The notes under the pieces were generated by a model. The model did not search any database. It was not told the DNA's origin and saw only the letters and a list, made by a program, of their open reading frames with translations. The position numbers and the translations under genes are program-made. Below are positions 2,935 through 20,007 of a stretch of DNA of 32,000 nucleotides, piece after piece; within the stretch, counting starts at the first letter, position 1, and every line of letters begins with the position of its first letter. Origin of the DNA: Prochlorococcus sp. MIT 0801 (GTDB lineage: Bacteria > Cyanobacteriota > Cyanobacteriia > PCC-6307 > Cyanobiaceae); contig NZ_CP007754.1 in the NCBI RefSeq assembly GCF_000757865.1, forward strand, positions 330,001 to 362,000, written 5' to 3'.

Positions 2935-3054
2935 CTTTCGGACTCATTTGGTTAGTATTTCTAATTGTCCCTTATTTAGGGCTAAGACTCATAGTTAAAT
3001 GAAAATATAGTTAAAAGTTCTGTAATCCATTAACCCCAAAAAACTATAAGAATC

Positions 3055-3675
3055 ATGGTTCGAACAGCCTCAACAATGCTTCCATTAGGAACTCAATTAC
3101 CTGATTTTGAGTTAGGTGTGGTTTCAGGCGTGAACTCTGCTCCAGATGATCCTTTAAAAGGCCTTAGTCATATTAGAAGTGTTGACCTAACAAAAAGACC
3201 ATTGTTTTTGATGGTTATATGTGCTCATTGTCCATTTGTTAAACATGTAGAAAGTGGAATCACAAACCTATTCAATTCTTTTGGTAATGATATTCAATTT
3301 TTGGCTATTTCTAGCAATAGCTTGATAACCCATCCTCAAGATGCACCAGAATTCTTAGCCTCTCAAGCTAATAAACTGGGATGGAAGTTCCCATACCTAT
3401 TTGATTCTGATCAAAAATTAGCAAAAGCGCTTAGAGCCGCATGTACTCCCGATTTTTATGTTTTTTGGCCTTCTCCAGATGGAAACTTAACATTGAGATA
3501 TAGGGGACAAATGGACGGAAGTCGCCCTGGCAATGAAATTCCTGTATCTGGTGATGATATTCGTCTAGTATTCAAATCCTTATTAAAGGGAGAAGTTATT
3601 TCAGCTAATCAAAAACCTTCTATTGGTTGCAACATAAAATGGCATCCAGGTATGGAGCCTGAGTGGTTTGGATGA
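3055..3675 (+). CDS. Thioredoxin-fold thiol-disulfide oxidoreductase (AhpC/TSA-redoxin-like)
   Basis: 206 aa. LPDFEL at the N-terminus, a CxxC centre (CAHCPFV) and a length typical of cyanobacterial redoxin-family proteins. Confidence 0.7.
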   Translation: MVRTASTMLPLGTQLPDFELGVVSGVNSAPDDPLKGLSHIRSVDLTKRPLFLMVICAHCPFVKHVESGITNLFNSFGNDIQFLAISSNSLITHPQDAPEFLASQANKLGWKFPYLFDSDQKLAKALRAACTPDFYVFWPSPDGNLTLRYRGQMDGSRPGNEIPVSGDDIRLVFKSLLKGEVISANQKPSIGCNIKWHPGMEPEWFG

Positions 3676-14658: not shown

Positions 14659-15108
14659 TTGTTATATGTGAAAGTGAAAACTGTGAGTGAAGGCACAAAA
14701 AAAGAATCAAATCCTTTGGAAAATTTGAATCCTAATGAACAACAAAATCAAGTTATTTCATTTGAACCAAAAAACTCAACCAAGGAATTTGATCCAAAAG
14801 CCAATCGCTTCGAATGTATGAGCTGTGGTTTTATTTTTGATCCTGATGAGGGTATAAAAAAGCTAAATATTGAACCAGGGACGCCATTCCTAGACATAGA
14901 TAGAGACAAGTTTAGATGTCCTGTCTGTCGAGTAGGATTTGGTGGATACAAGGATATTGGCCCTAAATCAAAGCCGAGTGGATTTGAAGAAAACCTTACT
15001 TATGGCTTTGGATTTAATAAACTTCCTTCAGGCCAGAAAAACGTTCTTATTTTTGGAAGCTTGGCTTTAGCCGCTGCCTGTTTTCTCTCTCTTTATTCTT
15101 TGAAATGA
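14659..15108 (+). CDS. rubA: Membrane-anchored rubredoxin (photosystem II assembly-associated)
   Basis: Rubredoxin CxxC...CxxC core ([12 protein letters not shown]...FRCPVCRV) plus a C-terminal transmembrane helix ([20 protein letters not shown]). Sits immediately upstream of ycf48 and psbE, as in other cyanobacteria. The start is uncertain: the ORF opens with TTG at 14659 and has in-frame GTGs at 14668, 14674 and 14683. Confidence 0.85.
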
Positions 15109-16121
15109 AACGTCTGTTTTCAAATGTCATTAATTTGACCCTTGTCTTAGTAGTTGGAGTAGCTCTTAGTGGTTGTACTGTTAGTAATGCTTCAATAGGC
15201 TCATCAAGCCCTTGGTCACCAGTTGACCTAGATACTGAGGCAAATCCATTAGATGTTGACTTTGTAGATGACAAAAATGGGTTCTTAGTCGGAACAAACA
15301 GATTGATTCTGGAGACAAATGATGGAGGAATAACTTGGAAAGAAAGAAATTTAGATATCCCAAGCGAAGGTAATTTTCGTTTAATAAGCGTTGATTTCAA
15401 AGGCCAAGAAGGTTGGATTGCAGGTCAACCAGGATTGATTCTTCATACCACTGATGGAGGAAAAAATTGGACTCGTCTTGATTTGGGAAATAAGTTGCCC
15501 GGAGATCCGTATTTGATAACAACAATTGATACTGATTCTGCCGAGTTAGCAACTACTGCTGGAGCAATTTATAAAACTACTGATGGTGGTACCAATTGGG
15601 AAGCAATTGTTCTTGATACTTCTGGCTCTGGAGGCATAAGAGAATTAAGACGTACAAATAACGGTGGATATATAAGTGTTAGTAGCCTTGGTAACTTTTT
15701 CTCAGTCTTAAGACCGGGAGAAGAGGTATGGAGCCCTCATCAAAGAGCAAGTAGTAAGAGAGTTCAAAGTGTTGGTGAACAGCCAAATGGTGATTTATGG
15801 ATGCTTTCTAGAGGAGCTGAAATCAGATTTAACGCAGATCCTGAAGATATCGATTCATGGTCAAAGCCCATAATCCCAATCGTCAATGGGTATAACTATC
15901 AAGATCTTGTTTGGGATCCATCTAAGTCGATTTGGGCGGCTGGAGGAAATGGAACTTTATTAGTCAGCAATGATGATGGAAAAACTTGGGAAAAAGACCC
16001 TGTTGGTGAATCTGTTCCAACAAATTTCATAAGAATTCAATTTCTGGACGATTTAAATAGTGACAGTCCTAAGGGATTTGTATTCGGAGAAAGGGGCAAT
16101 TTACTGCGGTGGCAGGGTTGA
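15105..16121 (+). CDS. ycf48: Photosystem II stability/assembly factor Ycf48 (HCF136 homologue)
   Basis: 338 aa. Lipoprotein signal with lipobox LSGC, and repeated beta-propeller T(T/N)DGGxxW blades (TNDGGITW, TTDGGKNW, TTDGGTNW, NDDGKTW). Its ATG overlaps the rubA TGA (ATGA at 15105-15108). Confidence 0.92.
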   Translation: MKRLFSNVINLTLVLVVGVALSGCTVSNASIGSSSPWSPVDLDTEANPLDVDFVDDKNGFLVGTNRLILETNDGGITWKERNLDIPSEGNFRLISVDFKGQEGWIAGQPGLILHTTDGGKNWTRLDLGNKLPGDPYLITTIDTDSAELATTAGAIYKTTDGGTNWEAIVLDTSGSGGIRELRRTNNGGYISVSSLGNFFSVLRPGEEVWSPHQRASSKRVQSVGEQPNGDLWMLSRGAEIRFNADPEDIDSWSKPIIPIVNGYNYQDLVWDPSKSIWAAGGNGTLLVSNDDGKTWEKDPVGESVPTNFIRIQFLDDLNSDSPKGFVFGERGNLLRWQG

Positions 16122-16228: not shown

Positions 16229-16477
16229 ATGGCTGCCGGCTCTACCGGGGAACGCCCGTTTTTTGAGATCATTACTAGTGTCCGCTATTGGATTATCCAT
16301 GCGGTAGCACTTCCTGCGATCTTCGTGGCAGGATTCCTATTTGTGTCTTCTGGGCTTGCCTACGACGCTTTTGGAACTCCTAGACCAGATACGTATTTTC
16401 AGGCTGGAGAAAGCAAAGCTCCTGTTGTTGTTCAGCGCTTTGATTCCAAGGCTGAACTTGACACTCGTCTGAAATAA
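16229..16477 (+). CDS. psbE: Cytochrome b559 alpha subunit
   Basis: 82 aa, full length. [47 protein letters not shown] includes the heme-ligand His in RYWIIH. Confidence 0.96.
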
Positions 16478-16506
16478 CCAAATTTCAACTGATTGCTTTT
16501 TTATCC

Positions 16507-16626
16507 ATGCAAGTCAATCCAAATCCAAATAAAGTTCCGGTTGAGTTAAACCGGACAAGTCTTTATCTTGGACTCTTACTTGTTTTCGTAATGGGAATTC
16601 TTTTTTCCAGTTACTTCTTTAACTAA
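16507..16626 (+). CDS. psbL: Photosystem II protein L
   Basis: Hand-translated 39-aa ORF, below the track cutoff: [39 protein letters not shown]. It matches the PsbL consensus ([18 protein letters not shown]...[10 protein letters not shown]). Confidence 0.93.
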
Positions 16627-16637
16627 ATCTCTTTATC

Positions 16638-16835
16638 ATGAGTAAATTAAAAGGTCCTGATGGACGAGTAGGAGATCGTCTGCCAGATGGTAGACCTGCA
16701 GTCTCCTGGCAAAGACGGTGGACAGAAGGAGCACTTCCTTTATGGTTAGTAGCGACTGCTGGTGGAACAGCTGTAATTTTTGTTCTGGGTATTTTCTTTT
16801 ATGGTTCATACACTGGTATTGGTAACGCTGGTTAG
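16638..16835 (+). CDS. psbJ: Photosystem II protein J, with an N-terminal extension
   Basis: 65 aa. The C-terminal half, [29 protein letters not shown], is the PsbJ transmembrane core. Positioned directly after psbL. Confidence 0.9.
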
Positions 16836-16868
16836 TCTTAACTAGATAAATACTATTGAATTGAAATT

Positions 16869-16911
16869 AAAAAAAACCAACCGTCACTTAATGTGTCGGT
16901 TGGTTTTTTTT
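16869..16911. terminator. Bidirectional intrinsic terminator between convergent psbJ and mtnP
   Basis: A-run (16869-16876), stem CCAACCGTCAC (16877-16887), loop TTAAT (16888-16892), stem GTGTCGGTTGG (16893-16903; 11 bp with 1 mismatch), then a T-run (16904-16911). The flanking A-run and T-run allow termination in both directions. Confidence 0.75.
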
Positions 16912-17841
16912 AAGCCAATATTTATCTGTAAATAATTTGATCTTGCTTTTAGTTTTGTCTGGTACATGCTCTTTTGGAGTGACTAAGGCATCTTTTAATG
17001 CATTGTGAAAAGAGCTTGGCGGCCTTAATAATGAGACCCTTTTAGCAACAGCAGAAATTATTGATTTAGCAAAATTTGCATTTTCCTGAAGATTTTCAAT
17101 AACCATTTCTACAGATACATTTTCGCAATTTTGATTCCAGCAATCATAATCAGTAACCATTGAGAGGCTGGAATAGGCGATTTCAGCTTCTTTTGCCAAT
17201 CTAGCTTCAGTATGATTTGTCATCCCTATTATTGAGCATCCCCAATCTCTATATAAGTTTGATTCTGCTCTTGTTGAAAAGGCTGGTCCTTCCATAGCAA
17301 GGTATGTTCCTCCAATATGCAGTTTTTTGTCTTTTGTTAACAGTTTTTCTATCTCTTTCGAAAGTATTTGAGAAAGAATGTCGCAAAATGGATTTGCCAT
17401 GCTTATGTGCGCTACAACTCCATTGTTGAAAAAAGTCAATGGCCTTTGATGAGTGCGATCAATAAATTGATCAGGAATAACAATGTCGCAAGGTTTGATA
17501 TTTTCTTTTAATGATCCCACCGCTGATGCGGATATCAACCATCTAACATTTAGAGAGCGCATAGCCCAGATATTTGCTTTGTATGGAATTTCACTTGGAT
17601 TTAAAGTATGTTTCTCTCCGTGGCGAGCAAGAAAAACAATCTCAATTCCAAATAGATTGCCTATTAGTAACTTATTAGATGGTTTCCCATAGGGAGTGTC
17701 TAAGCTTAACTCGACTATGTCTTTAAGATTTTCTATCCTATATAGTCCGCTTCCGCCAATAATTCCTAATCTTGCTTGTTTGAAATCGTAGGCATCTGAT
17801 TGTGTTCCAGAAATATTCAAAAAATCATGTTCAGTGATCAT
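16888..17841 (-). CDS. mtnP: S-methyl-5'-thioadenosine phosphorylase (purine nucleoside phosphorylase family 2)
   Basis: 317 aa. LGIIGGSGLY, FLARHG..H and SASAVGSL are MTAP/PNP motifs. The N-terminal ~25 aa extension and exact start are uncertain. Confidence 0.85.
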   Translation of the reverse strand: MITEHDFLNISGTQSDAYDFKQARLGIIGGSGLYRIENLKDIVELSLDTPYGKPSNKLLIGNLFGIEIVFLARHGEKHTLNPSEIPYKANIWAMRSLNVRWLISASAVGSLKENIKPCDIVIPDQFIDRTHQRPLTFFNNGVVAHISMANPFCDILSQILSKEIEKLLTKDKKLHIGGTYLAMEGPAFSTRAESNLYRDWGCSIIGMTNHTEARLAKEAEIAYSSLSMVTDYDCWNQNCENVSVEMVIENLQENANFAKSIISAVAKRVSLLRPPSSFHNALKDALVTPKEHVPDKTKSKIKLFTDKYWLKKNQPTH

Positions 17842-20007
17842 CTCGTTCTAGCTGGTGGTGGTCATACTCATGCCCTTGTGTTGCTCCAGTGGGCAATGAA
17901 TCCAAAATTGAAGCCTGCTGGAATGATTACTTTAGTTAATAAAGCAAGTACAACTGTTTATTCTGGAATGTTTCCAGGTGTCATAGCAGGTAAATACAAG
18001 ATAGATGAAATACTAATTGATTTGAGGAAACTTGCTTTAAAAGCAGGAGTTTCATTTGTGATGGCAGAAATTGAGGGAATCAATCTTAAGGAAAAAAAGT
18101 TACTTTTAGCAGGACGGCCAGAAATTGAATATTCTCTATTATCCCTAAATATAGGAACAAAAACTAATATAAATTCTAAACTTTTTATTAGAGGTGATAA
18201 AGATTTAGCTGTTCCAATTAAACCTTTTTCTGAATCCTATAAATTTATTGTCGATCAAGATATCCACAAGAATGATTCTTCTGCAAAACCATTTGTAATT
18301 ATTGGTGGAGGATTCGCTGGAATAGAAATAGCTTTTTCTTTAAGAAAAAGATGGCCAAAAAGGACTATTTTATTAAAAGTCAAATCAGGAAGAAATATAA
18401 ATAAAAATCTTTTAAGAAATTTAAAGGCTTTAGATATTGAAATTACAAAAAAGCAACCATCTATTTTATATCCAAAATTAATATGTACCGGTAATAAATC
18501 TTTTAATTGGTTAAAGAATAGTGGTTTACCTATAGATGAGAATGGGAGAGTTCTAACTGAAAAAACTCTTCAAGTCCTTAACTATCCAGAGTTATTTGCT
18601 GTAGGAGATTGTGGTGTCATTAAGGATTATCCTCGACCTTCTTCTGGAGTATGGGCGGTTCGTGCAGCAAAACCACTTGCAAATAATTTAGAGTTTATAA
18701 CTAAAGGTTTAAAACTAGAGGAATGGAAACCTCAAAGAAAAGCAATACAACTTTTGGATATCAATATTAGAAAAAAGAAATCTAAAGCTTTTATTTCCTG
18801 GGGTGAAGTTATTATTGGTCCTTTTGATTTTTTATCAAGTTTAAAAGAATTAATTGATAAACAATTTATCTCTAAATTTGATCTAGTTAAAGATATAAAT
18901 TCAGATATGTCTTCTGAAGAAGAGATGATTAAATGTAGAGGATGTGCGGCAAAATTAGCTTTTACTCCATTAAGTTCAGCATTAAAAAAAGTAGATTTAA
19001 TAGAATCTTCAAAAGATGATTCTATGAATATAGGGATATTAAATTCTGATAAAACTTTGATACAAAGTGTAGATGGATTCCCTTCTTTAATTAGTGATCC
19101 TTGGTTAAATGGAAGACTTTTGGCGTTTCATTCCTGTTCTGATATTTGGGCATGCGGAGGATCTGTGATCTCTGCACAGTCTCTTATCAACTTACCATCC
19201 ATATCTAATAACTTACAGAAAGAATTGTTATATCAAGTTTTGGAAGGTATTAATTCTGCTTTAACTATCCAAGGTGCAAATCTTATAGGTGGGCATACAT
19301 TAGAATCAAGAAAAATATCTGAAGAGCCTTTTTCCCTAGGAATAGAAAGCTCATTAACTGTAAATGGGGTTATTGATGATAAAAAATATTTTTGGCCTAA
19401 GGGAGGAATGAGAAATGGAGATGAAATTTTAATTAGTCGTTCTTTGGGAACTGGAATTATTTTTTCTGCATTTATGAATGGTCAAGTAAAACCTTATATA
19501 CTTGATAATGTCTTAAAAGAAATGAATAAAAGTCAGCATGAGATTGTCAATTATATTAATCAATTAACAAATCTAAATCCACGCTCAAAAATAGTTAATG
19601 CATGTACTGATATAACTGGATTTGGTTTGCTAGGTCATTTGTCAGAAATGTTGGAATCTACTAATAGTGACCAATTAAAGATGAATTTAGAACCATTTAA
19701 AGTCACTCTTGAACTGGATAATATACCATTATATGATGGTGTAAAAGAACTTTTAGATAAAGGCTTTGAAAGCACTTTAGCCCCTGCAAATCATATTTTT
19801 CTAAAAAATATTGATGGAGATAAAAACTTAAGGTTTGAGCTCAAATCTAATGATTCTTCCTCTAATAGATCCTTTTATAATGCCATGCTAAAAATCTTAG
19901 TAGACCCACAAACTTGTGGCCCTTTGGTTGTTTGTTGTTCATCGATTTATTCAGAAAAACTTATACAGCAAGGACCTTGGATTAAAATAGGTTTTATTTC
20001 TAAATAA
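17827..20007 (+). CDS. selD: Fusion protein: N-terminal FAD/NAD(P)-dependent pyridine nucleotide-disulfide oxidoreductase-like domain and C-terminal selenide, water dikinase (SelD)
   Basis: N-terminus LVLAGGGHTHA plus a second Rossmann motif FVIIGGGFAGIEIA. The C-terminal half begins MIKCRGCAAKLA (Cys form of the SelD active-site loop) and carries AIR-synthase-like PurM-fold motifs (GGHT, CTDITGFGLLGHL). The ORF is open from TTG at 17800. I call the ATG at 17827 (MFSDHLVLAGGG...). Confidence 0.85.
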   Translation: MFSDHLVLAGGGHTHALVLLQWAMNPKLKPAGMITLVNKASTTVYSGMFPGVIAGKYKIDEILIDLRKLALKAGVSFVMAEIEGINLKEKKLLLAGRPEIEYSLLSLNIGTKTNINSKLFIRGDKDLAVPIKPFSESYKFIVDQDIHKNDSSAKPFVIIGGGFAGIEIAFSLRKRWPKRTILLKVKSGRNINKNLLRNLKALDIEITKKQPSILYPKLICTGNKSFNWLKNSGLPIDENGRVLTEKTLQVLNYPELFAVGDCGVIKDYPRPSSGVWAVRAAKPLANNLEFITKGLKLEEWKPQRKAIQLLDINIRKKKSKAFISWGEVIIGPFDFLSSLKELIDKQFISKFDLVKDINSDMSSEEEMIKCRGCAAKLAFTPLSSALKKVDLIESSKDDSMNIGILNSDKTLIQSVDGFPSLISDPWLNGRLLAFHSCSDIWACGGSVISAQSLINLPSISNNLQKELLYQVLEGINSALTIQGANLIGGHTLESRKISEEPFSLGIESSLTVNGVIDDKKYFWPKGGMRNGDEILISRSLGTGIIFSAFMNGQVKPYILDNVLKEMNKSQHEIVNYINQLTNLNPRSKIVNACTDITGFGLLGHLSEMLESTNSDQLKMNLEPFKVTLELDNIPLYDGVKELLDKGFESTLAPANHIFLKNIDGDKNLRFELKSNDSSSNRSFYNAMLKILVDPQTCGPLVVCCSSIYSEKLIQQGPWIKIGFISK

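Follow-up and report, generated by a model that had tools for sequence, protein, structure and literature searches.

To our knowledge, no photosystem II (PSII) has been studied that lacks cytochrome b559, and both subunits of this cytochrome are essential for PSII assembly. The locus considered here, in Prochlorococcus sp. MIT 0801, raises the question of what becomes of this cytochrome when the gene of its beta subunit, psbF, is missing from the psbEFLJ operon. It lies in a stretch of 32,000 nucleotides, called the window below, which belongs to low-light clade I (LLI, NATL-type) Prochlorococcus and is 96.8% identical to NATL1A. Compared with the psbEFLJ operon of cyanobacteria and plastids, the LLI operon has the same ycf48 neighbour, gene order, strand and tight spacing, and a terminator of its own, but it departs clade-wide by lacking the second gene, psbF, a 29-nt spacer standing in place of about 135 nt.

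The coordinates proposed for psbE, psbL and psbJ in the initial annotation, as well as the 29-nt gap between the first two, were exact, and all three proteins scored above curated NCBIfam cutoffs (Table 1). PsbE retains the heme-ligand His24, and an identical protein was found in 3627 index blocks, of which 35 have contigs longer than 1 Mb. PsbL is 100% identical in most LLI loci, while PsbJ of the window carries an N-terminal extension typical of marine picocyanobacteria. The neighbour 5' of psbE is ycf48, as in other cyanobacteria, and the intrinsic terminator downstream of psbJ closes both the psbE-psbL-psbJ unit and the convergent mtnP. Beyond mtnP, a 735-aa fusion ORF (17800-20007, + strand) joins an FAD-dependent oxidoreductase domain to SelD/AIRS domains and is named "selenophosphate synthase / NADH dehydrogenase-like" in NATL2A. 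From the TTG listed as its start, this ORF would share about 40 nt with the 5' end of mtnP, which diverges from it; a more downstream start, such as some LLI gene calls have, is therefore the more probable one.

Table 1. Features of the psbE-psbL-psbJ locus in the window, and the long-form gene of a complete LLI genome.
Feature	Position	Strand	Description
ycf48	15105..16121	+	338-aa ORF; PSII assembly factor; PF14870 PSII_BNR in identical LLI layout
psbE	16229..16477	+	82 aa, full length; cytochrome b559 alpha; TIGR01332, 118 bits (cutoff 93.95)
psbE-psbL spacer	16478..16506	+	29 nt, CCAAATTTCAACTGATTGCTTTTTTATCC; probable scar of in-situ psbF deletion
psbL	16507..16626	+	39 aa; NF001972, 96.7 bits (cutoff 74)
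psbJ	16638..16835	+	65 aa; NF002722, 96.6 bits (cutoff 57)
Bidirectional intrinsic terminator	16867..16913	.	A-run, 17-bp stem, T-run; -28.3 kcal/mol, z = -8.9 versus shuffles
mtnP	16888-17841	-	Convergent with psbE-psbL-psbJ
LLI long form, MIT 0916	L123:5305-5598 (region of CP138980)		97 aa, FTVRTLAVN

The absence of psbF from the window was confirmed by several methods. The 32 kb yielded no PsbF when three PsbF references were used as tblastn queries (E<=1000), when motif regular expressions were applied, or when every stop-to-stop segment of the six frames was scored with profile HMMs built for canonical, long-form and mixed PsbF. The sole match was PsbE, a known distant paralogue, with a weak score. 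A diverged or frameshifted psbF within the window was rejected on the same empty searches. No psbF thus stands between psbE and psbL, whereas psbE, psbL and psbJ are all in place, and the agreement of the methods in all frames bears out the initial statement that PsbF is absent from the psbE-psbL gap and that the other intergenic gaps of the window show no PsbF-like ORF. We also share its warning that annotating psbF here by operon expectation would be an error; extended to the clade, such annotation would invent a psbF gene in LLI.

This organization is common to the whole of LLI as sampled here. An exact look-up of PsbE returned ten long contigs, eight of the ten representing finished or near-finished genomes, NATL1A (CP000553) and NATL2A (CP000095) included, and psbE (3001-3249) and psbL (3279-3398) were separated by the same 29 nt in all of them. 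When one genome per species was scanned with Ycf48 as the query, six further Prochlorococcus (Ycf48 85-94% identical to that of the window) also had psbE abutting psbL, with spacers of 27-29 nt. The psbF-less layout was therefore found in 16 of the 16 other LLI genomes examined; NATL1A and NATL2A, put forward in the initial annotation among the psbF-containing references, lack psbF as well, and its proviso that the arrangement would be normal for the clade if relatives also had psbE next to psbL describes what these genomes contain. By contrast, psbF lay between psbE and psbL in every non-LLI cyanobacterium fetched, that is, in Prochlorococcus of HL-type and other LL clades, whose Ycf48 is about 61% identical, in a freshwater picocyanobacterium and in about 35 other cyanobacteria. 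PsbE is 100% conserved across LLI, with His24 strictly kept. As an observation on gene calling, psbL is present in the DNA of three of the ten LLI genomes (L082, L083 and L089; position 3279-3398) in which it is left uncalled, and for genes as small as this a missing gene call is hence weak evidence of absence.

An assembly or editing artefact had been listed among the possible explanations, whereby psbF would have been lost through mis-assembly, sequencing error or an edit of the window sequence. The only point in its favour is that psbEFLJ was expected beforehand to be universal, and it is refuted by a psbE-psbL junction common to 17 independent genomes: the junction is identical in the 16 other LLI genomes, which were independently sequenced and include finished and single-cell assemblies. 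In NATL2A, moreover, the accessions of psbE, psbL and psbJ are consecutive, as are the locus tags (PMN2A_1662 for ycf48, then 1663 for psbE, 1664 for psbL and 1665 for psbJ; PMC5974335, Table S3). The probability left to an artefact is negligible.

The spacer itself suggests how psbF disappeared. When the junction was aligned with eight operons that contain psbF, the hexamer AACCAA directly following the psbE stop codon came to lie on the psbE-psbF spacer, and ATTTCAaCTGAT aligned to the final codons and stop of psbF, ATTTCATC-TGAT falling on the psbF 3' end CAATTCATCCGTCGCTGATC, which reads Q-F-I-R-R-stop. The T-rich remainder, TTTTTTATCC, corresponds to the psbF-psbL spacer. This pattern is suggestive of an in-situ deletion of about 135 nt, and no more than suggestive given the shortness of the matching stretch. 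The spacer hardly varies among the 16 other LLI genomes, from which that of the window differs only at 16488 (A versus T; TTTCAaCTGATT versus TTTCATCTGATT), a substitution which falls inside the putative remnant of the psbF 3' end. The loss is old, since the psbF-less genomes are just 80-97% identical to the window at the DNA level over a 6.2-kb segment. The precise deletion envisaged in the initial annotation is thus supported as a deletion, but it is an ancient trait fixed in the clade and not a peculiarity of the window sequence.

The search for canonical PsbF also brought to light (as P0043) a second family, "cytochrome b559 subunit beta, long form" (NCBIfam NF002717/NF002720). Annotations and one preprint have already recorded the long form and an "extra PsbF copy": MIT9312 has the gene as "PsbF-like protein" (e.g., PMT9312_1176; PMC6517427), and the preprint infers that the ancestor of streamlined Prochlorococcus acquired this additional copy of PsbF. 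Members of this family have 95-101 aa, in which a hydrophobic helix at the N-terminus is followed by a loop and then by a C-terminal helix that matches PsbF almost throughout (28 of 33 residues). That helix differs from PsbF in both heme-contacting residues, with Thr for the Trp and Asn for the axial-ligand His, whereas its remainder, the Arg included, is retained. FTVRWLAVH in PsbF accordingly reads FTVRTLAVN in all 120 long forms among the matches listed, and T67 and N71 did not vary among 56 aligned long forms drawn from all clades. In the non-LLI clades of Prochlorococcus, the long form is present in addition to canonical psbF.

The clade of long-form loci was assigned through 90%-identity clusters of their housekeeping neighbours, base composition giving no clade. 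A 97-aa group beginning with MNTLK is abundant in metagenomes of the deep chlorophyll maximum, with clusters of 186, 62 and 84 members, and one such protein sits on a single-cell genome contig (L100). The housekeeping neighbours on that contig cluster at 90% identity with complete P. marinus genomes, and its peroxiredoxin with that of Prochlorococcus sp. MIT 0916, whose complete genome (CP138980) contains both the psbF-less operon and the long form. The LLI gene is a full member of the long-form family, sharing with the HL clades the extra helix, the invariant Thr and Asn and the position on the isiB side. It differs in its company: elsewhere the long form accompanies canonical psbF, whereas in LLI it is the only beta-type gene. 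P0197, representing LLI, and P0200 matched NF002717 over their full length with 173 and 171 bits (cutoff 153). P0197 also passed the canonical model TIGR01333, with 64.1 bits against a cutoff of 61.15, over its C-terminal 34 residues. The protein nevertheless lacks the axial His of canonical PsbF (R-W-[LI]-A-[VL]-H), as MIT 0916 and all LLI alleles read FTVRTLAVN, and the MIT 0916 protein contains no His and no Cys at all. Nor does its size agree with that of canonical PsbF, a single helix of about 40-48 aa, since it has 97 aa and two predicted helices, of which the extra, N-terminal one is transmembrane and is connected to the PsbF-like one by a cytoplasmic loop. An AF2 model placed these at residues 2-26 and 65-89, with a modest overall pLDDT of 71 and values of 84-88 for helix 2-26.

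The long-form locus lies about 1 Mb from the LLI psbE-psbL-psbJ operon, beside the flavodoxin gene isiB. In LLI and other low-GC clades, the long form was consistently observed two genes from isiB, with a conserved hypothetical gene of 125-144 aa between them (L091, L097, L100, L110, L113, L114, L117 and L123, e.g., L123:3692-5598); in L091, a pcb/isiA-like gene is also adjacent. This conserved position may point to a link with iron stress or iron economy, although such a link is speculative. The gene is clearly functional, in view of the strong purifying selection acting on it within LLI (pN/pS over 18 distinct alleles: 0.06 for the whole gene, 0.02 for the PsbF-like helix). In axenic NATL2A cultures kept in extended darkness, the transcript of PMN2A_0792 rises with psbE, psbL and psbJ, by +1.9 and +2.0 log2 at 40 and 48 h, and isiB does not (PMC5974335, Table S3).

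It is very probable that LLI is devoid of any canonical psbF. Searches of 206 kb of LLI DNA by tblastn and HMM recovered PsbE and the long form only, and the protein-database searches (43 hits, and the best 120 of 1,546) yielded no canonical PsbF cluster attributable to LLI. In the genome-wide table of NATL2A, which combines RAST, RefSeq and GenBank tracks, "PsbF" or "b559 beta" appears in a single row, PMN2A_0792, and its neighbours PMN2A_0793 (hypothetical) and PMN2A_0794 (isiB) identify the long-form locus (PMC5974335, Table S3). In line with this, canonical PsbF of MIT9312 has no NATL2A orthologue and its PsbF-like gene corresponds to WP_011294880, while MIT9312 Ycf48, PsbE, PsbL and PsbJ map to consecutive NATL2A accessions (PMC6517427). 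Every sizeable Prochlorococcus-type cluster of canonical PsbF that was checked for context was in-operon and non-LLI. Four candidates for a relocated LLI copy, P0122 (RFFAVH), P0018, P0011 and P0022, all turned out to lie in ordinary psbEFLJ operons of other clades. Among 80 canonical PsbF loci of a metagenome scan, the picocyanobacterial ones were in-operon save for one, LLIV-like, type, the other exceptions being plastid; no stand-alone canonical psbF was found in a low-GC picocyanobacterial context in this sample, and the viral collection held essentially no psbF. A stand-alone psbF with AT-rich flanks (L212, P0010) was likewise discarded as a relocated LLI copy, the contigs being LLIV-like with 52% GC.

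On these LLIV-like contigs (L219-L228 and L212), whose GC content is about 52%, there is a further canonical psbF that stands alone; it encodes 45 aa with the His intact (L219:10001-10138) and is located about 1.1 kb from a divergent long form of 101 aa (L221:3117-3422, - strand). The locus sits between glnA/cpeB and GUN4/psb28/secDF, and the stand-alone psbF has 60% GC with flanks at 34-36% GC. It may be the site where the long form arose by duplication.

The existence of such copies outside the operon makes relocation biologically possible, and a canonical, His-bearing psbF might likewise persist elsewhere in LLI genomes as a small, unannotated stand-alone gene, the operon having merely been rearranged. 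The retention of the PsbE His ligand in LLI would fit this reading, as would the fact that PsbF is essential in model organisms, and gene callers often miss small genes, as illustrated above by psbL. On the other hand, PGAP annotates even smaller PSII genes in NATL2A, and all three annotation tracks of this genome (RAST, PGAP and GenBank) reserve the name PsbF for the long form. The lack of a NATL2A orthologue of MIT9312 PsbF, of a canonical gene in the 206 kb of LLI DNA and of a stand-alone copy in low-GC picocyanobacterial metagenome contigs argues in the same direction. Canonical LLI clusters were moreover missing from the top PsbF hits, though the LLI long-form clusters are large. Relocation, which the initial annotation had proposed among its explanations, thus found no support, the long form being an old paralogue and not the displaced gene, and we hold it to be quite improbable.

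We therefore favour, with moderate confidence, the view that an LLI ancestor lost the psbF of its operon and that the His-less long form took the place of PsbF, the heme being absent or held in an unconventional way. The data show that psbF has gone from psbEFLJ, leaving the compact psbE-psbL-psbJ, and the in-situ deletion of about 135 nt would be the event that removed it. The long form arose earlier in the evolution of Prochlorococcus, and LLI kept it as the sole beta-type homologue found. Under this proposal, it would occupy the position of PsbF beside PsbE in LLI PSII and supply the structural role of the beta subunit with no heme ligand, so that the b559 heme of LLI would be missing or unconventionally bound. 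Clades that retain psbF would use the long form in its stead or next to it. A stricter formulation, in which LLI PSII has no canonical PsbF, a His-less two-helix beta subunit and no bis-His b559 heme, and in which the long form of other clades is an alternative, iron-sparing beta subunit, is advanced more tentatively. A b559 without a beta subunit, which had been ranked as the least likely explanation, comes near to the favoured reading, except that a beta-like subunit does exist and what it lacks is the heme-ligating His. Heme-free b559 is indeed compatible with PSII assembly in ligand mutants of Thermosynechococcus. The complete conservation of PsbE His24 in LLI speaks against a heme-free cytochrome, being easier to understand if heme is still bound. 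There is also no sign of LLI-specific adaptation, as the PsbF-like helix of LLI is identical to that of the psbF-bearing clades. In the PDB copy searched, there was no PSII structure from LLI or any other Prochlorococcus, and no LLI PSII proteomics was found.

The conserved His24 could also be accounted for in another way, namely if two PsbE His, or one PsbE His and a non-His ligand, held the heme in LLI and the long form were not a beta subunit at all, but an assembly factor or a stress-specific subunit. Homodimers of b559 subunits can bind heme in vitro, and the long form coexists with canonical PsbF in other clades and should therefore have a function of its own. PSII, however, has in its structure one defined site for the beta helix, in contact with D2, PsbE and PsbJ, and the long-form helix, so close to that of PsbF and changed at the heme-contacting residues, has the pattern expected if the PsbF site was kept. 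An alpha-alpha cytochrome would in addition draw on the one psbE copy of the operon, no second psbE having been seen in the 206 kb of LLI DNA. This arrangement appears unlikely to us, and replacement of PsbF by the long form remains the preferred reading.

Known systems offer partial parallels to this replacement. The heme-ligand mutants of b559 in Thermosynechococcus, Synechocystis and Chlamydomonas likewise have a beta subunit whose axial His was replaced, and in the thermophile PSII then assembles and evolves oxygen without the heme. Those are laboratory mutants, whereas the LLI long form occurs naturally, is of ancient origin, is maintained by purifying selection and combines His-to-Asn and Trp-to-Thr replacements with an added helix. 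Split b559 genes are known from algal plastids, as in Chlamydomonas, where psbE lies apart from psbF-psbL, and co-transcription of psbE and psbF is thus not required; plastid-type psbF loci with no adjacent psbE also occurred in the metagenome sample. These plastids, however, keep a canonical, His-bearing psbF elsewhere, whereas none was found in LLI. In the literature searched, we came across no paper that discusses a complete loss of canonical psbF from LLI with only a His-less paralogue remaining.

The function of the b559 heme has been debated for decades with no consensus (PMC12661325). LLI Prochlorococcus (NATL1A, NATL2A and MIT0801-type) are cultured and abundant, and if their sole beta subunit lacks the axial His, they would constitute a natural experiment on this heme. 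Oxygenic photosynthesis in the open ocean might then do without the b559 heme, with a possible saving of iron, which is a major selective pressure on Prochlorococcus. At a practical level, the loss of psbF is concealed wherever pathway tools assign the long form to K02708/PsbF, and psbF and the long form are best kept as separate families in lists of the Prochlorococcus core genome.

Some further variants of the beta subunit were encountered. An intermediate b559-beta of 78 aa (P0041, on a 517-bp ENA contig) has a loop resembling that of the long form and Asn at the ligand position, with the Trp kept (RWIAVN). A psbF of normal length, located in the operon, also has its ligand His replaced by Asn (RWLAVN; L132:112-255); it comes from a 685-bp metagenome contig with 2x coverage and could be either an error of sequencing or a case in which the ligand was lost a second time, independently. 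Single ORFs of 89-90 aa reading through psbF and psbL (PF00283 + PF02419; P0083, P0086, P0088, P0119 and P0130) recur in several clusters, one of them with 11 members, and may be real fusions or recurrent stop-codon errors. Finally, the in-operon canonical psbF of an MIT 1307-like clade (L096:5001-5141 and L158) reads RFFAVH in place of the otherwise invariant RWLAVH.
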